A stretch of 64,000 nucleotides of DNA from a virus: positions 1 through 64,000 of IMG/VR virus record IMGVR_UViG_3300029705_000104; one strand, 5' to 3'. Shown piece by piece: positions 938 to 64,000 of this stretch. The notes under the pieces are model-generated. The model worked only from the letters and a program-made list of their open reading frames with translations, did not search any database and had not been told where the DNA came from. The position numbers and the translations under genes are program-made. Position 1 is the stretch's first letter. Each line of letters starts with the position of its first letter.

Positions 938-1060
938 AGGCAGTTTAGTTGCCAAGAAGTACAATTGAAATCCCTCGTATACAAGCAGATAAGACAAGTA
1001 ACACAGCCATGGTCATACAAAATGCAACTATAATCCCAAGGAGCTCTTTAAAAATATCTT

Positions 1061-1360
1061 TCATTTGCTTGTTCCACCCTTACGAGGATTTTCCATAAGC
1101 ACGACATTGCACAAATGCGTGTAATAGGTATTTCCGTCAATAGTAATCTGAACAGAATCACAATTTTCAAAATCCCGCCAGCTATTTACCTTAACATCTT
1201 GCCACTCCCCATTAAGGTAAATATTAGCGTATCTAAAAGTTTGCTTAGTATCTAAACCAATTCCACGGTTACCAATCATACAGGAGCTCAGCAATCCAAG
1301 TGCTAGAATCAAAAATATAATAAGTCCAGCAATTTTATACCCACGGTTAAGCTTTTTCAT
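1061..1360 (-). CDS. putative lipoprotein
   Basis: Signal peptide ending in lipobox LLSSC (MKKLNRGYKIAGLIIFLILALGLLSSC). Confidence 0.45.
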   Translation of the reverse strand: MKKLNRGYKIAGLIIFLILALGLLSSCMIGNRGIGLDTKQTFRYANIYLNGEWQDVKVNSWRDFENCDSVQITIDGNTYYTHLCNVVLMENPRKGGTSK

Positions 1361-1467
1361 GACAATTTTCCTCCCTTTTATGTTATCGACTAAAAGAAGC
1401 TACTAGAAAACAAAAAGTGCAAAAGAGTATAATGAATGCAATTGCAACACCAATGATTTTCAAATTA

Positions 1468-2631
1468 TCATTCTTCCTCTTCATAGGTATCTACCTCTCG
1501 ATATAGATTTCTGATGTTTGACCTCATTGGTCCTTCTGAAATATAAGTAACCCCAAGTCCTTTAAGATCCTGTACTGTCTTAAGCATTTCATCATAGTGT
1601 GTAAGTGCTATCACACGCTTTGCATCAAGATCACCTACTTTTTGGAAATCAGCAATGGTTCTTTCTATAAGGCTAGGCCAATGAAGTTTTCCATATCGTA
1701 AGGAACCTTGCCATTCATTTGTATGATTTGTCAAATCAATTTTGGCACCTACTTCTTCCCTAGAACATTCGTTCGGCAGTATCCCAGCTCCATGACGTGT
1801 CAAATATGGCCGTGTAATATAACACACTTTAATGTTCATATCATTTGTAAGATAAGGTATAACATTTTGTATGCCAGTATTACTCGGAGTGAGATGCGGA
1901 AAATAATCCATATTATTTTGGTCAAGTAGCAGACCTTGTGCGCCTTCAAAGACCACATAATTGAATTGATCAAAAATAGATTCATCCTTAATAACTACAT
2001 GATCTAGGAAAAACCGTACATCTTCACAATATCGAGAGTGAATATTTTGATTAATCATTAAAGCTTTTTCTTCATCAGTTAAGCGGTCACCTAATAATTT
2101 GTCTATTCGTTCATAATCATAATAATCAATATTAGGCATACCGTCAACTGAAGCTACTGATAAGTAGTTTATTGTATTTTCTGGAGTAGCATTTTTATTT
2201 CGTAAAATTGTTTCATAAATGCCCATACCACAGCTACCATGACGTGCATTTCCTCGCCTTGTTTCCAGAAATTGATTAACCATCATATCCTGAGGCATTG
2301 TAAAGATGCATTTGGGATGACAATAAACCATTGGGCATATTTTTAATTGGCTTAATTTTTCATACTCTCTCCTAAATATAATAGGATTTACAATGAAGTC
2401 GCCCGAAAAATAGGTTGCAACATTAGGTAAGAAACTTCCGCTTCCAAAATGCCCAAATATATGACGACGACCATCAGGCGAGACAACCGTATGCCCCGCC
2501 TGAGAGCCACCATTAAATCGAACATTTAGGACGCGCTCATGTTTAGGAGCCATAGAGCAAAAATAATCAGTCATTAGACCCTTACCTTCATCCCCAAAGT
2601 TGGCCCCAATTACAATTTTCACATCCTGCAT
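1468..2631 (-). CDS. adenylosuccinate synthetase homolog (PurA/PurZ family)
   Basis: 387 aa. N-terminal P-loop GANFGDEGKGLMTD (cf. PurA GxxWGDEGKGK), VFEGAQGLLLD (PurA FEGAQGTLLD), TRHGAG and GSCGMGI motifs. Short, archaeal-like length as in phage PurZ. Confidence 0.7.
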   Translation of the reverse strand: MQDVKIVIGANFGDEGKGLMTDYFCSMAPKHERVLNVRFNGGSQAGHTVVSPDGRRHIFGHFGSGSFLPNVATYFSGDFIVNPIIFRREYEKLSQLKICPMVYCHPKCIFTMPQDMMVNQFLETRRGNARHGSCGMGIYETILRNKNATPENTINYLSVASVDGMPNIDYYDYERIDKLLGDRLTDEEKALMINQNIHSRYCEDVRFFLDHVVIKDESIFDQFNYVVFEGAQGLLLDQNNMDYFPHLTPSNTGIQNVIPYLTNDMNIKVCYITRPYLTRHGAGILPNECSREEVGAKIDLTNHTNEWQGSLRYGKLHWPSLIERTIADFQKVGDLDAKRVIALTHYDEMLKTVQDLKGLGVTYISEGPMRSNIRNLYREVDTYEEEE

Positions 2632-2645
2632 AGTTCTTGCCTTTC

Positions 2646-3779
2646 TTAGACACTATAGTGAGATACAGATGACATAAGAGACCTCTTAAATATAATATTT
2701 TCGATAGTAACATTATCTTGATATTCTTTAAGAAACTTCAGCATGTCCTCGTTATCAGAAAATGGATTAATGTGGCGCTTCCAATCAATAGGAAGAATGT
2801 CAGTTTTATTAATCGTAAGGAGACCATTAACAATTTTCACCTTATTTGGATAGAAATATACAACAATTTCACCCGGAATATGGCCTTCGACTTTATAATT
2901 GCGACCTACAAAGTGATCCAGGTTTTTATTAGTAAAATCAATGTACTCATCATGGCATTCATAAACAAGGCCATTGCTTAATTTAACTTGGATATCGAAC
3001 CTAGTAGCCTCTTTAGTAATATTCAGATCGTTCATTGTCTCTTTAAGGCTATGCCCCTGGTTTAAATCGAAGACGATAGCTCTCAGATAGTCATAAGGCA
3101 TATTAATAGCACTGGACAGATTAACTACATCCTGAATAATCTCATGATACTTAGGATCTAATTTATCTTTCAAATATTCCCGCACTTCATCAGGAGCTGG
3201 CGAAGATAGAACAAAATGATAATGAAAGCGCCCAGGTCTATTAAGCATGTATTCACTGATCTGATTAACATCATTGCATGTGCTAATGAACATCTTATGT
3301 CCACCATCAAGTCCATCAAACAGGGATAAAAGTTGTTCCTGTTCTCCGCGTCCGTCTTCGGTCGTAGTAAAGAGTTTTTCGAATTCATCAAATATAACAA
3401 GACAATCCTGCTTAATGGAAGAGATAAAATCCGGAAGACCAGGAGAAGCCATCGTAACCATAAGTACAGGATATCCTTCATGAATGCCTTCTCTAGCCAA
3501 AAGTCTCAGGAAAAGGCTTTTACCAATTCCTTTAGGACCACTTAATAGAACACCAAAATTCCTATTTGCGATCTTATAAGAGTTCATAGCTTTATGTACT
3601 TTAACAATACTATTTCCATAAATTTTTTCTTCAGTAATGGCTAAATCGTCCATTGTTTCTAAGGAATACCCATTCATCTGGCTAAAGCAAATCCTGTATG
3701 TTTTAACCGGAAGATGAGAAAAGGTTTGAACATCTTCTCCATAAATTTTATACATACTTCCAGCTTTGATGATATTCAT
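2646..3779 (-). CDS. AAA+ ATPase
   Basis: Walker A LLSGPKGIGKSLF, Walker B CLVIFDEFE; 377 aa. Confidence 0.6.
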   Translation of the reverse strand: MNIIKAGSMYKIYGEDVQTFSHLPVKTYRICFSQMNGYSLETMDDLAITEEKIYGNSIVKVHKAMNSYKIANRNFGVLLSGPKGIGKSLFLRLLAREGIHEGYPVLMVTMASPGLPDFISSIKQDCLVIFDEFEKLFTTTEDGRGEQEQLLSLFDGLDGGHKMFISTCNDVNQISEYMLNRPGRFHYHFVLSSPAPDEVREYLKDKLDPKYHEIIQDVVNLSSAINMPYDYLRAIVFDLNQGHSLKETMNDLNITKEATRFDIQVKLSNGLVYECHDEYIDFTNKNLDHFVGRNYKVEGHIPGEIVVYFYPNKVKIVNGLLTINKTDILPIDWKRHINPFSDNEDMLKFLKEYQDNVTIENIIFKRSLMSSVSHYSV

Positions 3780-3793
3780 GTTTTTACTCCTTT

Positions 3794-4318
3794 TTATTCA
3801 TTTTCTTCTTTTTTCAGAATATCATAAATATTGTCAATTAAATATTCGACTTGTCTTTTCGTTGTGGGATGCATGACCATTTTCTTTTCATGCTTAACGT
3901 ACCAATCAAATATTTCATTTAAATCGCCTTTGGCCCAGCTAAAGCTCCACCAGTCGCATACCATTTCATAAATGTATTCAATTGGCATCTCTAAGCCTTT
4001 AAGCACGGGACTGTCATCTTCATGAAGTACCCAATGCTGCCAGTGATGCGGATTATTATGAATATGATGGAGCCATGCATAATCAAAAGCTTCTTTAATA
4101 TCAGCTGTTTGCTCTGGTCCATAAAAATATTCATCATATGCATCATATTCTTGGGCAGATCGTTTGCTGTCGTCATGATGAGATATAAGTTCGCGTGTAA
4201 CTTCAATGGCTGATTCATCAACCAGTTCATGATCTACCAACCAATCAAAGCCCTTTTTAACATTTTCAATATGGTTTTGCAAATATATATCATATTGCGC
4301 ACTCATTATTATCACCAC
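3794..4318 (-). CDS. HD-domain phosphohydrolase-like protein
   Basis: 174 aa. H...ISHHDDSK (HD motif followed by K as in LLHDIGK), cluster of His residues (WLHHIHNNPHHWQHW) and downstream Asp (VCDWW). Size like small phage dNTPases. Confidence 0.45.
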   Translation of the reverse strand: MVIIMSAQYDIYLQNHIENVKKGFDWLVDHELVDESAIEVTRELISHHDDSKRSAQEYDAYDEYFYGPEQTADIKEAFDYAWLHHIHNNPHHWQHWVLHEDDSPVLKGLEMPIEYIYEMVCDWWSFSWAKGDLNEIFDWYVKHEKKMVMHPTTKRQVEYLIDNIYDILKKEENE

Positions 4319-4341
4319 TTTCTTTTGAATTATAAATGCGG

Positions 4342-4377
4342 GGTAGGGATTTGAATTTCTGTCACCCTACATGATAG
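4342..4377 (-). promoter_or_regulatory. conserved hairpin element GGTAGGG..CCCTAC-ATGATAG upstream of gene 3794-4318
   Basis: Third copy of the hairpin+CATGAKAG element also found at 26572-26598 and 28005-28029. Confidence 0.35.
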
Positions 4378-4461
4378 GAGCCTCTACGTATCATAGTTCT
4401 CTTCCTCTATATCCTATCTCAAGCCATCTTGCGTCTACCTATTCCGCCACCCGCAAAAATA

Positions 4462-4779
4462 TCATTCGAAGGGAAATTCTGCAGACAAATCGATGTCCTC
4501 AATTTTTGCTACTGCCACAATGATAAGATCTTCTTCGCCTTCCCACCAATCATTTTCCCAAACATAGGAAGGTTCGTCAGAAGATTTTTCGCGATCATCG
4601 ATAAGAAGCTCCGTAATATCCTGATATTTATCCTCTGGTTCATATGCAGCTTTGATCTTCATTTGCACAAGATAACTACCAGTGGGATACGGAATATCTT
4701 TGAAGATAGCGTCCTTTACCGCATCATACGGATTATCGAATTCGCAAGGATCCGGACCGAAATTCATTAATCGTCTCAT
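4462..4779 (-). CDS. acidic hypothetical protein
   Basis: 105-aa ORF rich in D/E. Confidence 0.35.
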   Translation of the reverse strand: MRRLMNFGPDPCEFDNPYDAVKDAIFKDIPYPTGSYLVQMKIKAAYEPEDKYQDITELLIDDREKSSDEPSYVWENDWWEGEEDLIIVAVAKIEDIDLSAEFPFE

Positions 4780-5032
4780 AATATATCACCTCAAATTTTG
4801 AATATAATAGGCTACCATAAATCATTGAAATCACCGCAATGAAACCTTTTAGGATTTTCCCCAGTATTGTAGCCTTGATTTTTTAAACAAGAAGAGAATC
4901 CTAAAACTCCATGAAATCTTATATGAAAATACACACAATATATGCATTTTTGAGATTTGTATTCTCCTAGAAATAAATGACGAATCCATCTTCTTAGTTT
5001 AAAAAGCGGAGGTCTCATTCTATACGGATACT

Positions 5033-6043
5033 TCATTCTTCAGTTCCAACCAAAGATCTCAGATCGATAATATTATTTGCCGAATCTCCAGATGTCACAG
5101 TAGGGAGCTTGCCATTCCACTGATTAACAGTGTTATACTTCACAAGAGCATCACTAAGAGTTTCAGCAATCTTCTTGTTGGCCTCTGCCTGAGCTTCAGC
5201 TTCGACTTTAACAGCATAGGCTTTTGCATCGGCTTCAATTTTCTGGACATCGGCAGCAGCCTGAGCCTGGATCCGATCACGTTCGGCTTTCTGTTGCATT
5301 TCCATTGTCTGTCGTTCCTGATCGGTCTGTGCTTTCTGCTTTTCCTGAGTTGCTACCTGTTTCGCTTCAACTGCAGATTCAAACGCATCTGTAAAATCAA
5401 TATTTTCAATAGCGAAGGAAATAACATTAATTCCTTTTTCAGCAAGTTCCGTTTTCAGCAATTCATAAATCTGATCGGAACAGGCCTGCCGATTTTCAAC
5501 AAGTTTTTCTGCAGTATATCTAGCAATGACAATCTTAACATCTTCCTGAACTCTCGGTCCGACAAGAATTGTAGGATAGTCGACACCAACTTCCCGATAG
5601 AGATTCATTGCTGTTGTTTTATCAATGTTGACATTAATGGAGCCTTGGAGAACTACTTGCTGAATATCTTTAGAGAATGCTTGAAGCTCAAAAGGAGTTC
5701 TCTGTTCACGATTATCCATAGCAATTACATTTTGCCAAGGCATTTTAAAATTAATGCCTGAAGGTAAAGTATCATTTTCGACTTTTCCGAATGTGGTCTT
5801 AATTCCTGTATATCCAGTCGGAACAATCGTAATGACACTTAAAAGAAGGATTAAAACACACAATGCAACCGATATCACACGAATCGGAAGAACCCATTTT
5901 GTATAGGTGCGAACATCATCGTCATCATAGCGCTGAGAACCTTCATCAATTTTCTTTTGCAGTCGTTTTCCCTGACTTGCAAAGTGGGTTGAGACACCAA
6001 TACCAGCACCGAGAATCGCAAGGGCGAAAATAAGTAAAAACAT
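5033..6043 (-). CDS. SPFH/band-7 (stomatin/prohibitin/HflKC-like) membrane protein
   Basis: N-terminal TM helices, then an SPFH-like core and a long EAQ-rich coiled-coil tail (QEKQKAQTDQERQTMEMQQKAERDRIQAQAAAD...). Confidence 0.6.
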   Translation of the reverse strand: MFLLIFALAILGAGIGVSTHFASQGKRLQKKIDEGSQRYDDDDVRTYTKWVLPIRVISVALCVLILLLSVITIVPTGYTGIKTTFGKVENDTLPSGINFKMPWQNVIAMDNREQRTPFELQAFSKDIQQVVLQGSINVNIDKTTAMNLYREVGVDYPTILVGPRVQEDVKIVIARYTAEKLVENRQACSDQIYELLKTELAEKGINVISFAIENIDFTDAFESAVEAKQVATQEKQKAQTDQERQTMEMQQKAERDRIQAQAAADVQKIEADAKAYAVKVEAEAQAEANKKIAETLSDALVKYNTVNQWNGKLPTVTSGDSANNIIDLRSLVGTEE

Positions 6044-6073
6044 ATTGCATTTGCTCCTTTTAATATAATCTTT

Positions 6074-7003
6074 TTAGAATTCAACTAACTCAGAATTGGC
6101 AGTTTTAGTTGTAAGTCCAGCTAGCGCTTCACGAACAACGATACCTGTGCTACCATCCCAAGAAGCAACAATATCATCCAGAGATTTACCAGCCATGGAT
6201 TCCAGAATAGATACTATAATCTGCGGAACTTTTCTATAGTCACTTACAGGAATAGCTCTCTCTCCAAGAATAGCTTTCCAATCGGCAATGACTTGTTCAC
6301 CAGAATTAGGATTCCATCCATGAGCCATATTCCATCCTTCTTTAAGACAAAGATGGAAGACTTCATATTTACGGTTGACCTGACTTAAAACCTCGCTGAT
6401 AGGAAGACTGTCTTTTTCAATATCTTCTCCAAAGATTCGCTTGATCTCGTCCCTTGTCAGAACCTCAGGATAACTATCATCGCCCATGGTAAATATAAAG
6501 CCCTTTTTATTTCTCTTTTCAAACGAGTCAATACTAGTATGATTCGCTGCAAAATACCAAGTAAGAGGATAACTTTCAAAGCCATTTCCTCCGCCGCCTT
6601 CTTCAAAGAATAACTGAGTCAACTGCTCGGCAATTCGGATATCGCTTTCAAACTGAGTGCACTGAAGAGGATACCTATCTCCGCATCTTGCATCACCAAT
6701 GGCATTAAACATAATTTGCGGATCATCAACAGGCTTACGATCCAAAATCTGTAGAACCAGATCACCAAGCTGAGTAGCCACGGCCTGAAGGATATCACTC
6801 ATGCTTCCCGTAACATCCAGACCGATAATAATCGGAGTGGAATTGGGATGGTCATCACTGTCGCGACTTTCTCTCATAACACCTTTTGGATCGAACTCAG
6901 AATCCATTGTAGAAGCAGTATAAATTTCCTCTGTAGACTTATTATTAACATTTTTAGTCGCATAACTTGTCCAATCTTGAACAGTAAAATTACCGGTTCC
7001 CAT
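6074..7003 (-). CDS. von Willebrand factor A (vWA) domain protein
   Basis: MIDAS-like IIIGLDVTGSMSD and overall vWA fold pattern; 309 aa. Confidence 0.55.
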   Translation of the reverse strand: MGTGNFTVQDWTSYATKNVNNKSTEEIYTASTMDSEFDPKGVMRESRDSDDHPNSTPIIIGLDVTGSMSDILQAVATQLGDLVLQILDRKPVDDPQIMFNAIGDARCGDRYPLQCTQFESDIRIAEQLTQLFFEEGGGGNGFESYPLTWYFAANHTSIDSFEKRNKKGFIFTMGDDSYPEVLTRDEIKRIFGEDIEKDSLPISEVLSQVNRKYEVFHLCLKEGWNMAHGWNPNSGEQVIADWKAILGERAIPVSDYRKVPQIIVSILESMAGKSLDDIVASWDGSTGIVVREALAGLTTKTANSELVEF

Positions 7004-7409
7004 TTACAACTTCCTCCTCTTTTCTAGCAGCTGTAGCTTCTTCAAATATTGCAGCCGCAAGCGTAAATCTCTCATGGAATACAACGTTAGTGTAAATTTC
7101 TTTGGCTCCCTCATCTGCCTGATCTTTATTGTCAGTACGCACTACGATCCAATTATCAGGCTCCAGTTTGACATCGGCATCGGAAATATGCATCATCATA
7201 ACAATTCCCGGTTGCCAGCATACGCATGTCTCCAGAGAGGTTTTATCTTTACAAAAAACCTTCTCTTTCTGATACACTGGCTGATTTGCCATTTCTTCAA
7301 AGTTTACCTCGTTCGACTGTCCCATTGTGATGTCCCCTTTCATGTTATAAAATATAAGATTATATATTAAAAATCCAGATAACTGGATTTGTTGCATATA
7401 GCTTGCCAA
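6990..7409 (-). CDS. hypothetical protein
   Basis: 139-aa ORF between vWA and J-domain genes; true start may be an internal Met. Confidence 0.3.
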   Translation of the reverse strand: MASYMQQIQLSGFLIYNLIFYNMKGDITMGQSNEVNFEEMANQPVYQKEKVFCKDKTSLETCVCWQPGIVMMMHISDADVKLEPDNWIVVRTDNKDQADEGAKEIYTNVVFHERFTLAAAIFEEATAARKEEEVVNGNR

Positions 7410-8414
7410 TTATTTTTCAGAATATATCTGGACAGCATCAGCATGAAAGATTTTAAATTGTCTAGTTCCATATGCCTTAGTTAAAGTATCATTCCAATTA
7501 CGATATTCCTTAATAGGATCATCAGAACTCCCAGAATCTGCCCATTTTAAAATATCTATCGGAATGTCTTTAGCTTTTTTACAAAGCATTCGAGCAATCA
7601 ATTTTACGGACTCGATATCCGTTGTCGGGGTTGCTTCTTTTGTAGTCTTTGACACTGATGACATGAGATTATAAATCTCTTTGGTCGTGCCAGTCATTTT
7701 CCCACCAATAGGAACCGCATATTGCCATCCGCCATATAAATGCATACTATGCTGTTCTGGATCAATATATAATGAATCAATAGTTATTCCATTATGTACG
7801 ATATCATGGGTGTATAAGAAACAACATAGATCAATCATACGACTGATCATCCAAGCAATATCTCTTCCATCTAATTGGTTCTCATATGTTTTTAGGAACA
7901 AATCAAATGGATACTCTGATGGTTCCTTAGCCAAGATTATTGCTTCTTGAGATGCTCCATTAGAGACTAATACCCGTTTAATAAATCTTGGCATACGACA
8001 TGAATATATTTTTTTCATTTTGTCGGGATCATTTGCAAGAGAGGGCCGTGATGCAATAAATCTATTACACCAAATAGATTTGTCCGGATCAAATATAAAT
8101 ACTAATTTATTAGATCCAGAGTACCGCATGCCCAATTCAAAATGGCTTTCGTTTTTGTATTCAATAACTTCATTATTGATTTGCAAACAATTCTTCTTTT
8201 TCCATGTACCATTTTGAATAGCTTCTAGAGCGGCACTATATAATTCATTTAGCTTTTGAAATGCAGCTTCAGCATTTGGCAGTTTGCATACATCAGGATG
8301 TATTAATTTTGCATATTCGCGATATTTATTTTTAATTGCTATTTCACTTTTAGAAAAGAAGTCTCCGCAGTAGATAGCTCCCTCGAGCTCTTTAATGGCT
8401 ATAGATGCATCCAT
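7410..8414 (-). CDS. J-domain (DnaJ-like, HPD motif) protein with C-terminal protein-kinase-like domain
   Basis: YREYAKLIHPDVCKLPNAEAAFQKLNELY fits the J-domain helix II-HPD-helix III pattern. C-terminal LYTHDIVHNGITIDSLYIDP resembles the kinase catalytic loop (HRDLKPENILID). Confidence 0.5.
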   Translation of the reverse strand: MDASIAIKELEGAIYCGDFFSKSEIAIKNKYREYAKLIHPDVCKLPNAEAAFQKLNELYSAALEAIQNGTWKKKNCLQINNEVIEYKNESHFELGMRYSGSNKLVFIFDPDKSIWCNRFIASRPSLANDPDKMKKIYSCRMPRFIKRVLVSNGASQEAIILAKEPSEYPFDLFLKTYENQLDGRDIAWMISRMIDLCCFLYTHDIVHNGITIDSLYIDPEQHSMHLYGGWQYAVPIGGKMTGTTKEIYNLMSSVSKTTKEATPTTDIESVKLIARMLCKKAKDIPIDILKWADSGSSDDPIKEYRNWNDTLTKAYGTRQFKIFHADAVQIYSEK

Positions 8415-8429
8415 ATATTATTTCTCCTT

Positions 8430-9443
8430 TTAATACATGTATTCTGCAGCCTCTTTTTGAGTCATAAAGAAATGAATGCCTGATGCACACGTAATCCAAC
8501 GGTCTTCATTAAAGTCTGGGACCTCAACCGTTTTATTAAGTTCATAAATAAAATCATTATCAAAATAACTACAAATTACAAAATGCTCATCATCGATTTT
8601 GGTTGGCTGGCCAGTCAGTATATTATACACTCCGATTACACGCGCTTTGCTGCATCTACATTTTCGACAAAATGCATTCGATCTTTTGGCATCTTCTTCG
8701 ATCTGTAGTTTTAAGATTACCTCATATGAAGAATACTGTTCTTCATCATCAATATCGTCTTTGCACCTTACGAGGCATTTCTTCCAACCAATAAAAGATC
8801 CTTCAGATGGGCACAGTTGAGGAATATCAGGTTCTCCTTGATCGAAAGATGTATCTGTCAAATTAAAATGAGTCTGACCGCCAATAAATGTTGTTTCACT
8901 GAAATCCGAATGATCTATTTGCATGCCTAAAATCCAACAGTCGAAAAACCGAGAGTCGTAAAAAATAGCATTATCAACCTTATTATCATAGAGGCGGCAG
9001 TTAGTCATTTTTGTTCTTGTCAAACGCATAGCTGAGAAAATAGTTTCAGATAAATCGCATTTCACAAATATGCATTCAATAAATGTTGCTCCTGTGAAAT
9101 CGCATTTCGTTAAAGTACAATTAACAAATACACATTTTTTGAAAAAGGCGCCTTTAAAGATAGCACCTCTAAGATTTGCATCAACAACATTCCATTCGTT
9201 AATTGTTTTTTCAGAAAAATCAGCTCTTAAATGTTTATTATCCTCCAATAGTCCATAATAATCTTCATCCCCAGCATATAATGGCTTTAGTAAAAAATCT
9301 CTTGATTCTAGGTCATACATTTTATCATAATTTTGTTTTCTAAAAAGGTCTTTTCTGCATGTGTCAATAACATCTAACCATTTTTTATGCTCTTCGAGTT
9401 TCTTAGGGAGCAGATAGTTTTCCTCAAAAGTATTCATATTCAT
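8430..9443 (-). CDS. pentapeptide-repeat protein with C-terminal CxxGIHFF domain
   Basis: Tandem A(D/N)LxF-type pentapeptides (FKKCVFVNCTLTKCDFTGATFIECIFVKCDLSETIF...). C-terminal ~110 aa is paralogous to 9451-9882 and 25944-26468. Confidence 0.6.
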   Translation of the reverse strand: MNMNTFEENYLLPKKLEEHKKWLDVIDTCRKDLFRKQNYDKMYDLESRDFLLKPLYAGDEDYYGLLEDNKHLRADFSEKTINEWNVVDANLRGAIFKGAFFKKCVFVNCTLTKCDFTGATFIECIFVKCDLSETIFSAMRLTRTKMTNCRLYDNKVDNAIFYDSRFFDCWILGMQIDHSDFSETTFIGGQTHFNLTDTSFDQGEPDIPQLCPSEGSFIGWKKCLVRCKDDIDDEEQYSSYEVILKLQIEEDAKRSNAFCRKCRCSKARVIGVYNILTGQPTKIDDEHFVICSYFDNDFIYELNKTVEVPDFNEDRWITCASGIHFFMTQKEAAEYMY

Positions 9444-9450
9444 ACTCCTT

Positions 9451-9882
9451 TTATAATGTGTATTCCATTGCTTCTTCTTTAGTCATAAAGAAATGAATTC
9501 CATTGCTGCATTCATTTAATGGATTTGGATCAAAAGCATCAGGTACAATAATATCACCTATTTGATAATGAAAGTTCTCATTAAAGTTACTATAATAGAT
9601 GAAATTAAAACCTAAAATGGTTTTAGGATCCGTTAATTCATTAACCAATTCATAAAAACACGAACTATTTCTGATTAATAGAATTTCTAAAACTTTTGCT
9701 TTACTGCATCTGCATTTTCTTCCAAAAGCATTTGAACGTTGTGCATCTTCTTGAATTTCTAGTTTGGCTAAAGCATCTCCAGAGTACATGCGTCCGTCAT
9801 ATTTATTTTCAGCATAAAATCTTATTTTTTCCAGCCAATAAAAGAACCAGTATCTGGACAATTCCTTTCCCATTTTGGCCAT
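9451..9882 (-). CDS. C-terminal CxxGIHFF domain fragment; downstream part of a frameshifted pentapeptide-repeat paralog
   Basis: Aligns with the C-terminus of 8430-9443 (QEDAQRSNAFGRKCRCSKAKV vs EEDAKRSNAFCRKCRCSKARV). Joined to 9822-10508 by a 1-nt shift at an A6 run. Confidence 0.5.
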   Translation of the reverse strand: MAKMGKELSRYWFFYWLEKIRFYAENKYDGRMYSGDALAKLEIQEDAQRSNAFGRKCRCSKAKVLEILLIRNSSCFYELVNELTDPKTILGFNFIYYSNFNENFHYQIGDIIVPDAFDPNPLNECSNGIHFFMTKEEAMEYTL

Positions 9883-10508
9883 TCAATAAATGCATCTTTT
9901 GGAATATCCCCAGGTAATCCACAGTCAACGAATTGAGTGAATTTTGCATTTATTTTGTGCATTGTGAACTCAAAAAGACCGCAACTTACAAATATATCAC
10001 TCGTAAATTTTGATTCCTTAGCACATGAATCTGTAAATAAGCAATCAATAAAATCAGTACGCTCGCAAAAACAATTTACGAATGTAACATGACCAAAGTC
10101 ACAATTTTTGAATATACATTTTTTAAAGACAGTTTTCGATAAATTAAGTGACATAAAAGAGCAGTCAATAAATGTACAATTTTCAAAATATACTCCATCA
10201 AATGCCACTTGAGGAAAAATTTCTTTGGTGAATACGTAGTGCTTAATGCATTCTCCGGAAGCAAAATTAATTTTTGTACCTCCATCACCAAAATAATTAG
10301 GCAATTCTAAGGTCGATAGATTTCGAATCAAAAAATCTTTTAAATGGTATCTGACTATAGAATCGCCAAGAATAGTGTTACTTGTAAGTTCCTGACTATC
10401 ACATCGTTGTTTTAAAAATGGTGAGGCATATGTATTACCAACTTGTACAAGCCAATCATGGTGTTGCTCTAGACGTTCAAGGATTTTATTATTGCTATAG
10501 GTATCCAT
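9822..10508 (-). CDS. pentapeptide-repeat protein; N-terminal part of the frameshifted paralog
   Basis: Pentapeptide repeats; ends ...GSFIGWKK-stop exactly where paralog 8430-9443 continues GSFIGWKKCLVRC. Confidence 0.5.
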   Translation of the reverse strand: MDTYSNNKILERLEQHHDWLVQVGNTYASPFLKQRCDSQELTSNTILGDSIVRYHLKDFLIRNLSTLELPNYFGDGGTKINFASGECIKHYVFTKEIFPQVAFDGVYFENCTFIDCSFMSLNLSKTVFKKCIFKNCDFGHVTFVNCFCERTDFIDCLFTDSCAKESKFTSDIFVSCGLFEFTMHKINAKFTQFVDCGLPGDIPKDAFIEWPKWERNCPDTGSFIGWKK

Positions 10509-10526
10509 ATTTTTACTCCTCGTCTT

Positions 10527-10925
10527 TTAATCCATTTTTAATCTGGTTGGTCCTTCTTTTGCTACCCATCGCATAAAACGTCCGTAATCTTTATGATCTA
10601 AAAAAGGGAAATATAAAGTTTGTGGCCAAAACTTCTTATTTTTTAATCTCCACTGTTCTAAATCTAAGCCATAACTCGTACCAACAATTTCTTCATATTT
10701 CTTAGCACTATAATATGCTTCTTCCATATTCTGGCATACGAGAAACACACAATCAATATTATCCATACCTGTCCAATCTAAATATTGGCCACATTTAAGG
10801 CATAAATTTTTGTACATTTTCTTTTTCTGAGTCCATATACTTTTGCATCGAGGACAAATATAAAGAATTCGATTGCCACTTGTTTTTCGAATGATAGGCC
10901 GTTTATTCGTATTTGGAGCAGCCAT
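10527..10925 (-). CDS. zinc-ribbon protein
   Basis: CPRC...CLKC motif; 132 aa. Confidence 0.35.
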   Translation of the reverse strand: MAAPNTNKRPIIRKTSGNRILYICPRCKSIWTQKKKMYKNLCLKCGQYLDWTGMDNIDCVFLVCQNMEEAYYSAKKYEEIVGTSYGLDLEQWRLKNKKFWPQTLYFPFLDHKDYGRFMRWVAKEGPTRLKMD

Positions 10926-11073
10926 AACTTATCTCCTTAATTCTTTTCCACAATGTACGCATATGATACAAAAGTCTTTTATCTCGTATTCATGGCCGAA
11001 TAGCCAACATCCTAGACATTTAAACGACTTATGAATAATATGACAGAATCTGAGCATATAAATCTACCCCTTG

Positions 11074-11403: not shown

Positions 11404-11859
11404 TTATGGATTATTTTTAACAAAACGGTCATACATTACAATACTTCCAGCAGTAGAGACATTCATGCAATGATCTCCAGGAAGTTGCACAATAGTATAG
11501 CAATCGTTTAAAACTTTTTTAGAGATACCACTATCTTCTGCTCCTAAAAGATAAATACATCTTTCAGGATGAATGAATCTTTGTATAGGTATACTATTCT
11601 CATCTAACTCAATTGCTATAACCGGGCAATCACATGGGATGTGCTTTTTGAAATCCTCCCAGTTTGCATAATGAAACAAAGGAATATGCTTTTGAGTTTT
11701 CATGGTATCGCTACATTGATTAGAATAACGTTTTCCAATTGTAAAAATAAATTGTGCACCTAAAATGTTAGCGCTACGCCACAAGGTACCAATATTTTTA
11801 GCATTTTTGGCATTAAAAATTCCAATACCAAAATATCCTCGTTTATTCTTTTCAGTCAT
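11404..11859 (-). CDS. SPOUT (SpoU/TrmH-TrmL-like) RNA 2'-O-methyltransferase
   Basis: Motifs GIGIFNAKNAKNIGTLWRSA, LLGAEDSGIS and MNVSTAGSIVMYD match SPOUT motifs 1-3; size like TrmL. Likely start at the internal Met MTEKNKRGYFG. Confidence 0.6.
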   Translation of the reverse strand: MTEKNKRGYFGIGIFNAKNAKNIGTLWRSANILGAQFIFTIGKRYSNQCSDTMKTQKHIPLFHYANWEDFKKHIPCDCPVIAIELDENSIPIQRFIHPERCIYLLGAEDSGISKKVLNDCYTIVQLPGDHCMNVSTAGSIVMYDRFVKNNP

Positions 11860-11872
11860 TGTTAATATGCTC

Positions 11873-12316
11873 CTATTTTCGTATTTGAGATACCCAAATA
11901 TTCTTTTCTTCGCATTTAATGGCATATTTATTGTATTCTTTTAGAAGCCAATCTAGCATATCGTATGATGGAAATTTCATAAGGTCCGGATCTGGAATAG
12001 CAAAATTTAATTCTTCGTCCTGATTCCTGCCATAAGGGCATAAAAAAGGGCTTATATTATGATGCTCGGCAAAATGCTTTAAGAATACAATCTCACGTTC
12101 ATTGCCTCTCAAAATATAAGTATTACGCCAAAGCATTGTCCAAAAGATAGCGGCAACTGTTTTTCCTGTTCCTCTGTCCCAATCTTTCCATTGATATGGA
12201 TACGGATAGTTATGATTAAGAACAACTTGCTTTTGTTTTTTGGTTAACTTAATACTTGTAGCCTTTTGAATTTTATGAAGTCTCCATCTGATGATAATTC
12301 TAGTAAAAATATTCAT
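11873..12316 (-). CDS. hypothetical protein
   Basis: 147-aa ORF. Confidence 0.3.
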   Translation of the reverse strand: MNIFTRIIIRWRLHKIQKATSIKLTKKQKQVVLNHNYPYPYQWKDWDRGTGKTVAAIFWTMLWRNTYILRGNEREIVFLKHFAEHHNISPFLCPYGRNQDEELNFAIPDPDLMKFPSYDMLDWLLKEYNKYAIKCEEKNIWVSQIRK

Positions 12317-59636: not shown

Positions 59637-62600
59637 TTAAATATCCGTACGAGAAGAATAAAATCCACGCTGGCCTAAATATCGATCCATTTCAGGACCA
59701 ATGGCACCAACAACCGCACCTGTATTCATAACAAGTTTTATGTTCTTTATTGATGCATTAAGCATGGAGACATCTTCTCTCAAATTTGTAATTTCCTGGC
59801 GAATATCATGCATGCTTTCTGTGTAATCTTTGGGCATAGCAGTATCCGCCATAATTGTTGCTCTACTCGGATCGATGGTAAGGCTCCCACTCGTAAGACT
59901 AAGGCCCGAAGATCCAAACCATCCATTTAAACGAGCAACACCACTTTCAACATTAGTTAAGTCTAAGATTGGAGTAATCGTCGGTTGTGTAAATTCCTCT
60001 CCATTAATCAATTTAGATAATAATGTTAACGCACCTTCTGCACCGAAGAGAGTGTCTGTAATTAGCCCTTCGGCAGCATCCGCAGGCTTATCAGTGTTAC
60101 GTTCAATACCCGCAGCTACTCCTAATGCAATGTATGTACCAACAGTGTCTCTAAATAATTTAGAAGGAGAGGCCGATCGAGATTCAGCCATTGCCGCATC
60201 ATGAAGTTTTTTGATCATATGTTTGGCTGCTTCAACTAAATCATCATCCGAATCCTTATTTAAAATTCCTGCTTTAATGCCTAATACCATGTTTCTACCA
60301 ACGCCATAAAAATCATAATTTTGATCGCGCGAATTAACAAATGCATTAAGCCCTTCAGCAAACCTGGCGAACATATCAATAGAATCCATATTAATTTCTT
60401 CGCCGTTTTCGTTCCAATATGCAATGGTTTCACAAATTTGATGCATTAGGAAAGCAACTCCGTCCAACACTGAGGATACTTCACGAGATCCAGTTGATGC
60501 ATCATATTCAATTACAATATCATCTTGTAGATGATTTAATAAATCAGCTAAAACCGAAACATAACTAAATCCATTTCTTAATTTATCCTCGGGAATATAG
60601 CTTAATGCAGACATAATTTCAGTGAAGGATGCAACAGAACTTAATGCACTATTTACAACATCAGCATTAAATTTAGCAGTTTGTCCTTCAATTTCACCAT
60701 TTAAGGCATTACTAAGATTCATTAATCCTGCGCCCATAACGGTAATGTCATCTGCTAATTCACCGAAGTCCTCTTTATGACCTGTAAACCATTGAACAAT
60801 ACCACCTACATCTGGCATCTCATTGCGCATTTTGATTAAATCTCTCAATGCCTGCAATGCATTATTAAATGTGGTGGATGTATCTGAATCAAACTTTGTA
60901 TTATTAGCAAAATCCTGGAGTGCTGCTCCTAATGCAATAATATCTTCCGAGAATGTTCCTAAGGTTTCAGGCGTTACATTAGTACCTTCAAATATCAGAG
61001 TTGCCTTAATAGATTCTTTTGTCAAATCAGTGTTTAACTGCTTAAAGAACTTAAGTGCGTTAGTAGCATTAGAGACATCTCCAAAATCTTTGGTACTTTC
61101 ATAAAAGCTATATAAAGCACCACCGAGTAATCTAATATTTGTAGCAAATCTAGACATTACTCCGACTTTAACTTCTTTAGTAACTACATCTACAACTGCA
61201 ACGGTATCAGCAGTTAAACGCTTATTTAATTCGGCTAAGAAATCCAATGCTTTAAGTCCAGCAGCTGCTTTTCCATCATTAAATTTTTTGCATGCGTTAG
61301 CATATGATACAACAGCATTCGCTAATGCTGCTAACTGAGACGGAAAATCTTTAAGATCAGCCTCACTCGGTAAATCCGGAATTTTAAAGCTACCATTCTC
61401 ATTAAGAGAATCACTAATAGCCGTCATAATTCGAACCGCACCGCTTACTCCATCTGCAGATAACTCTTCATCGGTTAGTCCGGTGACTTCCTTAGCACCA
61501 AGAGCATATAAGGATAAAGCGCCACCTAAGCCTTGAAGAACTTCAATAAATCCATCAAGATCTAATTCACTAAAAGCCTGAATATCATTCTTGCATGCAA
61601 GAATATTTTTCAGTAACTTTAATGCAATGGGCTCTTCCTCTTGAATAGATGCTTTCCCTTCAGGATTTACAAAGCTAGAAATAGCTCCACCTAAGGATGC
61701 CATATTATCCGAGAATGTTCCTAAAGCAAAGCCATTAATTTGATCTTTTAGACTACAAATTTTATCGATCAAGCGAATTGCCGGATCATTATCTGGACCT
61801 TTAACATTGCCTGTCAGATTTGCATATAGACGCAGCGCTGCTCCAAGTTTACGAACCATTGTCGTAAAATTAGCTAAAGGCTGCATATAAGAACTTACAT
61901 CTTGTAAACCGGCAATTAAATTATATAATGATTCAAATTTACGTTTAGCAGAATCGATTTGCTCTTCGCTCATTCCAGACATATTGCTTATAAAAGATGT
62001 AAGCATGCTGGAAATCAGAATTAACTTGGCACTCAATTTCTCTAAACTACTTCCAATGGCACCAATTACCAAAGGCATAACTAGCGATAAGACCGCCATA
62101 ATAGCAGCTACAGCCGCACCTAAAATAAGGATACCTTTAATAGCTCCGGATAAAGACAATTTAGATGTAATCTTCAATGCTTCAGCCATAGCTATTAATA
62201 ATGCAGCCAAGCCTAAAGAAAATGCTAATATCTTATCAACTTTTAATGTCTTAATTTCATTTAATGCCATAGAGAACACTAAAACTACAGCGGCCAAACC
62301 AACCATAGCCACTAGTGCATGAAGGCCCTTCATAAGGGATTTTTCATTGCTGTTAATCATATCGACCATGGCAAAATATACAACAAGAAGTGCAGATAAA
62401 GCAATCATGGAAACTACAATAGTGTCCCATTTGACTCCCTGCATCATTTGCATACTAAGACCAAAGGCTAATAACACAACCGCTAAAGGAACTAATGCGG
62501 CAAATGCAGCAACACCCTCTCGAATTTTCATTCCCTTAGAAAGTTCCATTAATACATAAATTGTGCCTAAGAGTACAATTAAGCCTACTGCCATTCTTGC

Positions 62601-64000
62601 AAGGCCTTCCCAGGAAACAGATGCTAATGGCGTAAGTGCTCTTACTAATACCCATATTGATACAGCAACGGCAATAACACCTGCCATCTCACCGAATCTG
62701 TAAGAACCAAGGCCAGAATTAAATGCACTAAGCATTAACAAAATGGCTCCTAAGCCGGCACCCATTTTAGCAAGATTTTCCCAGCTAAAGGCAGCCAAGG
62801 GTTTTAATGCCTCAACTAATATCCAAATACTTCCAGCCAATAATATTAATTTACCTAGGGCTGTACCTTTTAAAGACTTAACACTAGTAGAAAATCCTAC
62901 AAGCATAAGCAGTACTACCCCTAATGCTGAAAGCATCTTTAAGATGCCATCCATAGACAAATTAGCTAATGGTTTCAATGTAGAAATTAACAACCCTATG
63001 CTTATAGCTAATAGGATGGCACTTAGCATACCGGTTCCTTTGAGGCTACCCATGATACGGCTAAATCCAGCAAGCATCAATAAGATTGCTAATAATCCTA
63101 CACCCATCTTAGCCATTCCTTCCCAGGAAATTTTAGTTAAGGGTTTTAAACTTCTAACTAATACGCCAATTCCAAGGGCTAATAGTGCCATAGCAAACAT
63201 ATCCTTGGATTTTACTTTCTTAAAATCACCGGATACATATTTAGCAAATAGGCCAAGGATCAGAACAATTCCACCTAAACCGGTAAGCATCGTTGCAATT
63301 TGATCCATACGCATATTAGCTAATGGCTTTAAGGCAAGCACTAATAAAGTAATACCTATAATAATGCCCGTAAGTGCTATGCCCATAAGACCAATTGAGG
63401 CAGTCATACTAATGATCTCGGCAAGACCCATACCTTCAATTGTGCTCTTCATAAATTTCACAAAGAGCCCCATAAAGAGCATGATCAGTCCAACAGTAGC
63501 CACGCCTTTAATCAACGAGCTAATTTTCATGCTGCCTAAAACGGCAACTGCTGCTGCAATCAATGCAATACCAGCCGCAATCTTTAAGAATTTTTCACCA
63601 GCAGTTTCAGTCTTATCAGACACATCTAGAGATATACCTTTTTTAAGGCTGTCCCCTAATCCTTCAAAGAATCCACCGATGGTTTTAAACATAGTTTTTC
63701 CTTTAGAAAGCATCTGGAATCCTTTAAACAATGTTAAAAGTCCACCAAAAGCTTTAGTAAGTTTAAAAATGTTACTGCTACTAAAGATTTCAGTCATGCT
63801 TTTAATAAAGTTACCTGCAGCTCCTAAACCTAGATTATTCTTTAATAATGAAAATAAAGTGAATTCCCCTTCTTCATTTTTAAAGCCATCCAGCAAACCG
63901 CCAAAGACGCCAAATATCTTTTTAAACCACATTTTAATAGCGCCAACAGCAGTTTGTGCTTCACCTTCTACAACTTCACCATCATCAAAACCAAATACGT
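59637..64000 (-). CDS. tail tape-measure protein (5' end may lie beyond the window)
   Basis: At least 1431 aa with many hydrophobic helical segments and A/G-rich repeats. First in-window Met is at 63932, but the same frame stays open to position 64000. Confidence 0.65.
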   Translation of the reverse strand, partial: VFGFDDGEVVEGEAQTAVGAIKMWFKKIFGVFGGLLDGFKNEEGEFTLFSLLKNNLGLGAAGNFIKSMTEIFSSSNIFKLTKAFGGLLTLFKGFQMLSKGKTMFKTIGGFFEGLGDSLKKGISLDVSDKTETAGEKFLKIAAGIALIAAAVAVLGSMKISSLIKGVATVGLIMLFMGLFVKFMKSTIEGMGLAEIISMTASIGLMGIALTGIIIGITLLVLALKPLANMRMDQIATMLTGLGGIVLILGLFAKYVSGDFKKVKSKDMFAMALLALGIGVLVRSLKPLTKISWEGMAKMGVGLLAILLMLAGFSRIMGSLKGTGMLSAILLAISIGLLISTLKPLANLSMDGILKMLSALGVVLLMLVGFSTSVKSLKGTALGKLILLAGSIWILVEALKPLAAFSWENLAKMGAGLGAILLMLSAFNSGLGSYRFGEMAGVIAVAVSIWVLVRALTPLASVSWEGLARMAVGLIVLLGTIYVLMELSKGMKIREGVAAFAALVPLAVVLLAFGLSMQMMQGVKWDTIVVSMIALSALLVVYFAMVDMINSNEKSLMKGLHALVAMVGLAAVVLVFSMALNEIKTLKVDKILAFSLGLAALLIAMAEALKITSKLSLSGAIKGILILGAAVAAIMAVLSLVMPLVIGAIGSSLEKLSAKLILISSMLTSFISNMSGMSEEQIDSAKRKFESLYNLIAGLQDVSSYMQPLANFTTMVRKLGAALRLYANLTGNVKGPDNDPAIRLIDKICSLKDQINGFALGTFSDNMASLGGAISSFVNPEGKASIQEEEPIALKLLKNILACKNDIQAFSELDLDGFIEVLQGLGGALSLYALGAKEVTGLTDEELSADGVSGAVRIMTAISDSLNENGSFKIPDLPSEADLKDFPSQLAALANAVVSYANACKKFNDGKAAAGLKALDFLAELNKRLTADTVAVVDVVTKEVKVGVMSRFATNIRLLGGALYSFYESTKDFGDVSNATNALKFFKQLNTDLTKESIKATLIFEGTNVTPETLGTFSEDIIALGAALQDFANNTKFDSDTSTTFNNALQALRDLIKMRNEMPDVGGIVQWFTGHKEDFGELADDITVMGAGLMNLSNALNGEIEGQTAKFNADVVNSALSSVASFTEIMSALSYIPEDKLRNGFSYVSVLADLLNHLQDDIVIEYDASTGSREVSSVLDGVAFLMHQICETIAYWNENGEEINMDSIDMFARFAEGLNAFVNSRDQNYDFYGVGRNMVLGIKAGILNKDSDDDLVEAAKHMIKKLHDAAMAESRSASPSKLFRDTVGTYIALGVAAGIERNTDKPADAAEGLITDTLFGAEGALTLLSKLINGEEFTQPTITPILDLTNVESGVARLNGWFGSSGLSLTSGSLTIDPSRATIMADTAMPKDYTESMHDIRQEITNLREDVSMLNASIKNIKLVMNTGAVVGAIGPEMDRYLGQRGFYSSRTDI

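Follow-up and report, generated by a model that had tools for sequence, protein, structure and literature searches.

A widespread cassette of a predicted J-domain pseudokinase, a vWA-fold protein and a PurA-like ligase, found as a split copy in a tailed phage, has NAD+ salvage as its genomic context

In the known pairs of vWA proteins with MoxR ATPases, such as the Mg-chelatase subunits ChlD/ChlI and RavA-ViaA, a vWA protein with a metal-ion-dependent adhesion site (MIDAS) seems to serve as the adaptor of another enzyme, and in the TerY-P modules the gene of a MIDAS vWA protein lies beside that of a eukaryote-type kinase fold. J proteins are known as dedicated adaptors as well: auxilin and GAK direct Hsc70 to clathrin, and HscB directs HscA to IscU. 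A kinase domain and a J domain are combined in one protein in GAK, and the clathrin heavy chain presents a disordered hydrophobic C-terminal motif to Hsc70. Related domains are encoded in a 64,000-nucleotide stretch of viral DNA, positions 1 to 64,000 of the IMG/VR record IMGVR_UViG_3300029705_000104 (the whole stretch is referred to below as the window). Its initial annotation had described three adjacent genes at 5033-8414, coding for an SPFH/band-7 protein, a vWA protein and a protein with a J domain and a kinase-like domain, as a possible membrane-associated host-manipulation or conflict system. We found that this block belongs to a widespread cassette, of which the window has a split copy and whose order is predicted J-domain pseudokinase, vWA protein with a predicted MIDAS, PurA-like ligase dependent on guanosine triphosphate (GTP). 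The conserved genomic context of this cassette is the salvage of nicotinamide adenine dinucleotide (NAD+), not membrane signalling.

In the Shewanella AtcJ-AtcABC operon (PMC6715715) the gene of a specialised J protein adjoins those of its specific client, which is the arrangement proposed here for the cassette. That phages encode functional J proteins is known from Rki of phage RB43 (PMC3486835), although Rki targets the control of sigma32 and not an enzyme complex. PurZ has Ser at the position of the P-loop Asp of PurA (bioRxiv 10.1101/2025.10.22.683976). The PurA-like protein of the cassette is, like PurZ, a virus-borne PurA paralogue, but unlike PurZ it keeps the P-loop Asp. NAD+ salvage genes are known phage counter-defences (bioRxiv 10.1101/2024.02.11.579819), and NAMPT and NMNAT constitute the NARP2 counter-defence pathway. 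In a literature search no description of the J-pseudokinase/vWA/PurA-like cassette was found, and the NARP1/2 and NARP3 papers contain no mention of J-pseudokinase, vWA or PurA-like genes. The parts of the cassette belong to known superfamilies (J proteins, kinase fold, vWA, PurA); their combination and its context are apparently undescribed.

The three cassette genes and the SPFH gene are located in the window as follows:

7410-8414, minus strand: predicted J-domain pseudokinase, 334 amino acids; Pfam DnaJ and kinase fold; first cassette gene.
6074-7003, minus strand: vWA-fold protein, 309 amino acids; phrog_2971, 1.2e-52; central cassette gene.
1468-2631, minus strand: PurA-like adenylosuccinate-synthetase paralogue, 387 amino acids; Pfam Adenylsucc_synt, 2.7e-33; phrog_1211.
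5033-6043, minus strand: SPFH/Band_7 membrane protein of the prohibitin/stomatin kind, 336 amino acids; Pfam Band_7, 1.6e-26; phrog_200, 1.3e-42.

Relatives of the vWA protein were found 407 times in 185,579 species-level bacterial and archaeal genomes and 153 times in IMG/VR. To survey their surroundings, 80 of the 407 bacterial loci and 80 of the 153 IMG/VR loci were fetched and all open reading frames (ORFs) were scored with HMMER. The related loci were 168 in all and fell into 46 lineages, defined as clusters at 60% identity. In the count by lineage, a gene was taken as a partner if it was located at most 2.5 kb from the vWA gene. The determined partners were:

PurA-like protein: 162/168 loci, 45/46 lineages.
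J-pseudokinase: 117/168 loci, 23/46 lineages.
Protein with a Met/Gly-rich tail (Met-rich protein), no Pfam family: 33/168 loci, 15/46 lineages.
SPFH protein: 17/168 loci, 3/46 lineages.
AAA ATPase: 1/168 loci, lineages not counted.
DUF5662 protein: 1/168 loci, lineages not counted.

The PurA-like gene was nearly always co-directional with the vWA gene and directly downstream of it, with a median stop-to-start gap of 19 nucleotides (n=139). The J-pseudokinase gene, too, nearly always adjoined the vWA gene, on its upstream side, and was co-directional with it, the corresponding median gap being 20 nucleotides (n=115). The conservation of the initially annotated block was thus confirmed for the adjacent J-domain and vWA genes, but the third member proved to be the PurA-like and not the SPFH gene. 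The Met-rich protein and the J-pseudokinase were not found together in any of the 168 loci. The Met-rich protein has about 220-250 amino acids; its N-terminal domain (…MFRKVDGVVWDLMTGKIGI…) is conserved and its C-terminal tail is rich in Met and Gly. It is encoded upstream of the vWA/PurA-like pair in about one third of the lineages, all of them phages (L001, L002 and L122-L168; for example L158:6041-6784 and L164:7324-7977). No report was found in the literature that ties PurA or PurZ to vWA genes together with J-pseudokinase or Met-rich genes.

In GenBank phages, 219 records with a vWA homologue were detected by tblastn, 201 of them from Mycobacterium phages (e.g. Bixzunavirus Turret), 10 from Rhizobium and 6 from Vibrio phages. 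The distribution of the PurA-like protein, with 202, 10 and 6 records, respectively, matched that of the vWA protein. In the phages of these three host genera the vWA gene is followed, as the next gene or the one after it, by a gene annotated as PurA-like adenylosuccinate synthetase. A tblastn search of the GenBank phages with the J-pseudokinase gave no match at 1e-5. However, the gene directly upstream of vWA in Turret, annotated as a Ser/Thr kinase (gp251), was homologous to the J-pseudokinase in pairwise BLASTP and has an HPD motif of its own and the loop VHGAITPDN. The J-pseudokinase family, which is uniform in length, comprised 3492 cluster representatives at E<=1e-3 and 797 at E<=1e-30.

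Bacterial copies were found in Desulfosporosinus hippei and Desulfitobacterium sp. Sab5 as a compact operon of a NUDIX/NrtR regulator, a 335-amino-acid J protein, the vWA and the PurA-like protein, located among ordinary, non-prophage chromosomal genes. The J-pseudokinase, vWA and PurA-like genes stay next to each other in genomes of Bacillota, Pseudomonadota, Spirochaetota and Gastranaerophilales as well as in mycobacterial, rhizobial, vibrio and gut/rumen phages, a range over which the identity of the vWA proteins falls to about 32-35%. The cassette is common, being present in hundreds of phages and bacteria, among them about 219 GenBank phages of which about 200 are from Mycobacterium. On L007, a related phage contig of 93 kb that shares the J-pseudokinase and vWA genes, genes for a dGTP_diPhyd_N (MazZ-like) protein (L007:4224-4703) and a glycosyltransferase of family 8 lie directly upstream of the J-pseudokinase gene.

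The first cassette protein scored 30.2 bits with Pfam DnaJ (gathering cutoff 27.8) over residues 23-60, including the HPD motif. A sequence search of the PDB resulted in J-domain and VRK3 matches, and the alignment with Thermus DnaJ2 spans the HPD. In the AlphaFold2 model, which was built on an alignment of homologues (mean predicted local distance difference test score, pLDDT, 93.6), the helices of the J domain were located at 24-38 and 48-68. The Foldseek comparison of this model with the PDB gave a DnaJ-PKA chimera, the pseudokinase VRK3, VRK1, CK1 and CDK2 with E values of about 1e-7 to 1e-5, and a bilobal protein-kinase fold is indicated by model and matches alike. In 95 diverse family members H39 and D41 were invariant and P40 was kept in at least 90%. 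Outside the J domain the only invariant residues of these 95 proteins were W188 and H222, and an alignment of 35 sequences gave the same result.

The set of catalytic residues of active kinases (beta3 Lys, HRD Asp, catalytic-loop Asn and DFG Asp) is not kept in the kinase-like domain. Gly209 occupies the position of the HRD Asp in the catalytic loop VHNGITIDS, the DFG motif is replaced by YGG with Tyr227 at the Asp position, and a conserved beta3 Lys was lacking according to our own reading of the sequence and the model. Because the canonical catalytic Lys, HRD Asp and DFG Asp are all missing, the domain is predicted to be a pseudokinase, although some atypical chemistry is conceivable. The SPFH, vWA, J and kinase-like domains of the initial annotation were confirmed by Pfam, AlphaFold2, Foldseek and residue conservation.

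With the vWA protein no Pfam, NCBIfam or PDB sequence match was obtained, and 4968 homologues were detected at E<=1e-5. Its AlphaFold2 model, also built on a homologue alignment, had a pLDDT of 88.7. The model matched the SpaC pilus adhesin, integrin beta subunits and alpha I domains and the von Willebrand domain of Ku80 in the PDB (Foldseek E about 1e-6 to 1e-4), in agreement with a Rossmann-like vWA fold. The residues D63-V-T65-G-S67 at the end of beta1, T116, and D175/D176 after beta4 were invariant in 33 vWA homologues. The protein is predicted to have an intact MIDAS-type site, in which the middle Ser of DxSxS is Thr.

Residues 300-309 of the vWA protein are disordered in the model and the C-terminus is ELVEF. 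A tail motif was defined as two hydrophobic residues, any residue, and Phe or Trp at the C-terminus. It was present in 94/117 vWA proteins associated with a J protein and in 3/33 of those associated with a Met-rich protein (Fisher p=6e-14); counted by lineage, the values were 14/26 and 1/15, respectively (p=0.003). The variants included LVEF, LIEF, IIRF, LVKF and FIKF. Most of the J-associated vWA proteins missed by the strict motif still ended in hydrophobic residues (LVEM, LITL, PVAL, GFFF). In many tails the hydrophobic core is preceded by basic residues (…RKRGLLNSIIKF), and such basic-then-hydrophobic tails presumably resemble DnaK-binding peptides. Since the motif covaries with the kind of partner, J or Met-rich, the tail is suggested to be a handle for the J-pseudokinase or for DnaK recruited by it.

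The motifs GDEGKG, AGHT with its His, FEGAQG and TRHGAG (TR.G.GP), all shared with PurA, were invariant in 55 members of the PurA-like family. GDEGKG was kept in 139/139 relatives with a recognisable P-loop; four further relatives were without one. Over a length of about 300 residues the PurA-like protein of the window could be aligned with the PurA structures of E. coli and Legionella. With the family profile, E. coli PurA scored 146 bits and PurZ structures scored 25-39 bits. However, the protein itself was far below both equivalog cutoffs of NCBIfam (PurA 96 vs 402; PurZ 45 vs 300), its putative aspartate loop and TKLD motif are not those of PurA, and its C-terminal region is divergent and shorter. 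In the family the GTTGRGIG motif is changed to HGSCG.GI. As judged from the retained catalytic motifs, the enzyme is probably active on some 6-oxopurine nucleotide. In one IMG/VR phage (L132:3400-5922) the PurA-like gene contains an apparent intein, recognised by eye, with LAGLIDADG-type endonuclease motifs; it sits exactly in the catalytic AGH/T motif (…GGSQAGH|C……SHN|TVETP…).

The ORFs neighbouring the cassette were clustered and then scanned with Pfam. The bacterial NUDIX neighbours were NrtR-type regulators, consisting of a NUDIX domain and the NrtR winged helix. They were located at most 8 kb away in 50/80 bacterial loci and adjoined the first cassette gene in 35, in 26 of these divergently. 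In the phage loci the NUDIX gene codes for a bifunctional NMNAT-Nudix protein. NAMPT and NMNAT-Nudix genes directly flanked or interrupted the cassette in phage and Clostridium loci; this was seen in the orders NMNAT-Nudix, NAMPT, Met-rich, vWA, PurA-like (L146, L149), NAMPT, J-pseudokinase, vWA, PurA-like (Clostridium, L058) and vWA, NAMPT, PurA-like (L156). Since NAMPT is present in only about 4% of the GenBank phage records, its adjacency to the cassette is strongly enriched. The cassette thus shares the surroundings of the NARP2 pathway in many phage loci, where it is flanked by NAMPT and NMNAT-Nudix, and those of NrtR regulons in bacteria. In the Rhizobium phage RHph_TM2_3B (L001:929-3265), genes for a ComF-like phosphoribosyltransferase (PF15610), a product annotated as dehalogenase/hydrolase-like and a Nudix protein lie 3-5 kb upstream of the Met-rich, vWA and PurA-like genes, a neighbourhood related to nucleotides and NAD.

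Three traits of the cassette are each unusual in phages and bacteria: a J co-chaperone fused to a predicted dead kinase fold, a vWA/MIDAS adaptor whose tail depends on the kind of partner, and a PurA paralogue that is neither the housekeeping PurA nor PurZ. Since the cassette is repeatedly sited by genes for NrtR, NAMPT and NMNAT-Nudix, it may be a piece that has been missing from NAD+ and adenine-nucleotide salvage. NAD+ salvage is a central battleground between phages and the bacterial immunity that depletes NAD+. We rate the cassette as presumed auxiliary nucleotide/NAD metabolism of phages and bacteria with a dedicated J-protein client system.

We consider it a plausible proposal, held with about even confidence, that a complex of the vWA and PurA-like proteins is serviced by a dedicated adaptor recruiting DnaK and is linked to NAD+ and adenylate salvage. 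It builds on the observed domain identities, cassette composition, gene order, covariation of the tail and NAD+ salvage context. That the vWA protein and the PurA-like enzyme would form a complex is suggested by their genes, which nearly always occur as a pair and are separated by very few nucleotides. The J-pseudokinase would not be an enzyme but the dedicated adaptor of this complex, its HPD-bearing J domain bringing host DnaK/Hsp70 to it. The probable target of DnaK would be the hydrophobic tail at the C-terminus of the vWA protein, its action leading to assembly, remodelling or release of the enzyme, in a manner like that of auxilin/GAK with Hsc70 at the clathrin tail or of HscB with HscA at IscU. 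From inosine monophosphate (IMP) or some other 6-oxopurine nucleotide, the PurA-like enzyme would most likely make the succinyl-adenylate from which adenosine monophosphate (AMP) is formed. Placed in a NAD+ salvage neighbourhood, under NrtR control in bacteria and beside NAMPT and NMNAT-Nudix in phages, the cassette would likely restore the pools of adenine nucleotides and NAD+ during infection or NAD+ breakdown. The SPFH protein, as a non-core accessory, may tether the complex to the membrane.

In comparison with the dedicated J adaptors auxilin/GAK and HscB, the J domain of the cassette protein is N-terminal, the kinase fold is predicted to be dead, and the vWA/PurA-like pair is the presumed client. 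No sequence relationship to these adaptors was seen beyond the J domain, to which the comparison was limited. The C-terminal Hsc70 motif of the clathrin heavy chain resembles the tail of the cassette's vWA protein, and in its presumed role as adaptor of another enzyme the vWA protein corresponds to those of the vWA-MoxR pairs.

Several points weigh against the proposed mechanism. We infer the complex, the recruitment of DnaK and the substrate from gene order and motifs. Recruitment of DnaK is not essential to the vWA/PurA-like pair, since one third of the lineages use the Met-rich protein instead of the J protein. Many of the vWA tails are acidic (ELVEF) and not ideal as DnaK-binding peptides, and the tail could dock on the pseudokinase instead of DnaK. 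Two PurA motifs, which we take from E. coli PurA to be the aspartate-binding loop (TTGRxRR) and the guanine-binding motif (TKLD), are altered in the PurA-like family to the putative loop N..QG.[L/F]R[Y/F]G and to THLD/THYD, respectively, so the substrate or the amino donor may differ from that of canonical PurA. Recycling of ADP-ribose already yields AMP; therefore, extra synthesis of AMP is not obviously needed in NAD+ salvage, and to our knowledge no role of a PurA-type reaction in this salvage has been described. Among the ORFs of at least 100 amino acids in the 64-kb window there is no NAMPT, NMNAT-Nudix or NrtR gene, and hence no NARP2 gene. Finally, the association of the SPFH gene with the cassette could stem from shared ancestry in one clade of Clostridia phages.

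A further-reaching version of the proposal is that the cassette is an enzyme system gated by a chaperone, hitherto unrecognised as part of the NAD+ salvage regulon, contributing with the PurA-like reaction a step new to this pathway and forming a phage NAD+/adenylate counter-defence beside NARP1-3. This version is tentative and rather unlikely. The candidate reaction is the aspartate-dependent re-amination of hypoxanthine nucleotides or deamino-NAD arising under immune or stress conditions, and the dead kinase fold would serve as an Hsp70-targeting switch.

The SPFH protein of the window scored 93.9 bits with Pfam Band_7 (cutoff 23.6). By our own reading there are two hydrophobic segments near its N-terminus, and its C-terminal part is rich in Ala, Gln and Glu and probably a coiled coil. 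Band_7 and N-terminal membrane segments are shared with HflK/HflC, flotillins and prohibitin-like phage proteins. However, the scores with the HflC (TIGR01932, 37.1 vs 134.4) and hflK (TIGR01933, 18.6 vs 159.4) models were far under the equivalog cutoffs, by which orthology to HflK/HflC is ruled out. A single SPFH gene was present in the region examined, and neither an FtsH nor an NfeD partner was seen near it. The three initially grouped genes do co-occur elsewhere, and four arrangements were observed: vWA followed by SPFH (window, L089); SPFH, J-pseudokinase, vWA (L112); SPFH, vWA, PurA-like (L119); and SPFH about 5 kb upstream of the cassette (the group of L012 and L091-L111). SPFH homologues were found by tblastn in only 34/50,697 GenBank phage records, and owing to this rarity chance alone is unlikely to account for their association with the cassette. 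The association was, however, confined to related Clostridia-type phages, and 43/46 lineages had no SPFH gene next to the cassette. The closest homologues in GenBank were 'prohibitin family' proteins of Faecalibacterium phages, 43% identical, in genomes without a vWA gene. We regard the SPFH gene as a clade-restricted accessory or a co-inherited neighbour outside the core of the cassette. The L012/L091-L111 group (for example L093:5048-6634, L109:10201-11298, L097:11485-12781) consists of gut phages or prophages, with Clostridiales bacterium CCNA10 among them. Its cassette has as neighbours a DUF2828/DUF7788, a SPASM-domain and a LemA protein, and a predicted membrane protein adjoins LemA.

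The initial reading joined the SPFH, vWA and J-kinase proteins in a membrane signalling or conflict system of the TerY-P or vWA-MoxR kind, with FtsH as a possible target by way of an HflK/C-like scaffold. The three domains do exist, and the four gene orders and the rarity of SPFH homologues in phages speak for some connection, but 151/168 loci are without SPFH and close SPFH homologues occur in phages without a vWA gene, as in Faecalibacterium; the reading is improbable. The analogy with TerY-P fails because the catalytic Lys and both Asp of the kinase are missing and there is no phosphatase: no PP2C was detected with Pfam in the ten ORFs of 1468-10508 or among the conserved neighbour families. 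The cassette differs from TerY-P also in the J domain of its predicted dead kinase and in the PurA-like third gene. The pairing with a MoxR AAA+ ATPase did not hold either, since the sole AAA ATPase nearby, 2.3 kb from the vWA gene, is of the PF00004 type (phrog_2376) and not MoxR (AAA_3/AAA_5), and it is not conserved with the cassette. The suggested link to FtsH is unsupported, with the SPFH scores as far below the HflK/HflC cutoffs as given above. In PADLOC-DB v2 there was no match for the vWA, J-pseudokinase, PurA-like, AAA or DUF5662 proteins, and the SPFH protein alone was matched, weakly and in its C-terminal part, by LeoBC (E=0.0018); PADLOC and NCBIfam scans of ten neighbouring proteins resulted in nothing relevant. 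A conflict system at the membrane is also not what the conserved NAD+ salvage context indicates. The initial interpretation is therefore partly supported: the partnership of vWA and J proteins is real and SPFH is recurrent, whereas the unit, the kinase activity and the analogies were wrong. Still less probable is the absence of any functional unit, with independent accessory genes gathered in a variable region of a large phage. It would fit the single long co-directional array, in which promoter and terminator counts did not exceed the shuffled expectation, and the lack of conservation of the AAA, DUF5662 and small ORFs with the cassette. For the three core genes it is contradicted by an adjacency kept across bacterial phyla and phage groups down to a vWA identity of about 32-35%; for SPFH, AAA and DUF5662 it is possible.

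A conflict function could also be sought in the PurA-like enzyme, which would have a new substrate and would re-aminate deaminated adenine nucleotides (IMP, inosine triphosphate or deamino-NAD produced by host deaminase defences) or make a non-canonical succinylated nucleotide serving as signal or toxin, with the vWA protein and the J-pseudokinase as sensor or switch. The altered putative aspartate loop and HGSCG.GI, the equivalent of the GTTGRGIG loop, next to a retained catalytic core are consistent with this, as are the occurrence in phages and bacteria alike, the AbiH gene adjoining the operon in Desulfitobacterium, and the close linkage to the genes of NAD+ salvage, whose use by phages in counter-defence is known (bioRxiv 10.1101/2024.02.11.579819). 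We regard it as doubtful, though deserving more weight than the membrane system, since the PurA-type P-loop Asp and most of the putative IMP-contacting residues are kept, the bacterial copies stand under the metabolic regulator NrtR among housekeeping genes, PADLOC gave no matches and there was no sign of a toxic effector. Hardly any credence is left for the PurA-like protein as the PurZ of a 2-aminoadenine (dZ) genome pathway, in which DUF5662 would act as a hydrolase of the DatZ kind, the vWA and J proteins being unrelated neighbours. It is true that phrog_1211 groups the protein with PurZ-annotated ones, that DUF5662 has HD-like motifs and that the relative L007 has a MazZ-like gene. However, the P-loop of all 139 relatives in which it is recognisable has Asp where PurZ has Ser, both the NCBIfam and the family-profile scores speak against PurZ, the same gene is present in NrtR-controlled bacterial operons, and no MazZ homologue was found in the 64-kb window. 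A dZ genome was therefore rejected.

The phage origin of the window, as initially annotated, was borne out by its tail genes at 43-64 kb, which code for a tape measure protein (59637-63932), a tail fibre and a further tail protein; the phage is thus a tailed one. Metagenomic contigs of about 100 kb carry genes identical to those of the window, and megablast of positions 4800-8500 gave no match in GenBank phages. Of the 60 non-overlapping ORFs of at least 100 amino acids in the window (1-64000), 59 are on the minus strand. The cassette region is a tight co-directional array with every ORF on this strand. In a scan of 1000-11000 the numbers of promoters and terminators equalled the shuffled expectation, and no operon boundaries could be drawn. 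The other genes of the region are:

6990-7409, minus strand: small ORF, 139 amino acids from TTG.
4812-5036, minus strand: small ORF, 74 amino acids; from the ORF list; called as a gene on L169.
4462-4779, minus strand: small ORF, 105 amino acids; from the ORF list; called as a gene on L169.
3794-4318, minus strand: DUF5662 protein, 174 amino acids; Pfam DUF5662, 4.9e-31; phrog_20637.
2646-3779, minus strand: AAA ATPase of the PF00004 type, 377 amino acids; Pfam AAA, 2.5e-11; phrog_2376, 3.6e-96.

The three initially annotated genes are indeed on the same strand at the coordinates given for them, but they are not strictly contiguous, as the small ORF 6990-7409 sits between the J-pseudokinase and vWA genes. 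On the identical contigs L169-L172 it is called as a gene of 135 amino acids (6990-7397). Its product is lineage-specific, with 38% identity over 73 amino acids in L089 only, and no Pfam, PHROG or PADLOC match was obtained for it; nor was a family match in these three databases obtained for the product of 4462-4779. The split of the cassette in the window consists of 3.4 kb and six ORFs between the vWA and PurA-like genes; the lineage-specific genes located there include SPFH, the two small ORFs, DUF5662 and the AAA ATPase. The same split is present in L089, the closest relative of the window, and in L090 the PurA-like, J-pseudokinase and vWA genes form a single contiguous run.

The AAA ATPase and DUF5662 genes (2646-4318) lie directly upstream of the PurA-like gene. 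Both were ruled out as members of the cassette by their occurrence in 1/168 related loci each. The locus with the AAA ATPase was L143, where the gene is 6.8 kb away; for DUF5662 the single locus was found by phmmer, and L007 has in addition a tblastn homologue about 9 kb upstream. In the AAA ATPase a C-terminal part of about 85 amino acids falls outside the match with the phrog_2376 profile. The HD-like motifs of the DUF5662 protein are formed by His and Asp residues.

Directly upstream of the J-pseudokinase gene, positions 8430-10508 of the window code for three tandem paralogues with pentapeptide repeats and a C-terminal DUF5758 domain: 8430-9443, 9451-9882 (DUF5758 only) and 9822-10508 (repeats only). 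Among the pentapeptide models, those of the Qnr/MfpA type and HalA matched them weakly. About 3 kb upstream of the cassette, at 11404-11925, a gene is located whose homologue on the identical contigs matches Pfam SpoU_methylase, an RNA 2'-O-methyltransferase family. The GC skew of the window was negative in each 2-kb bin. The GC content was about 0.34-0.39, rising to 0.41-0.45 in parts of 38-52 kb, in the region of the tail genes.

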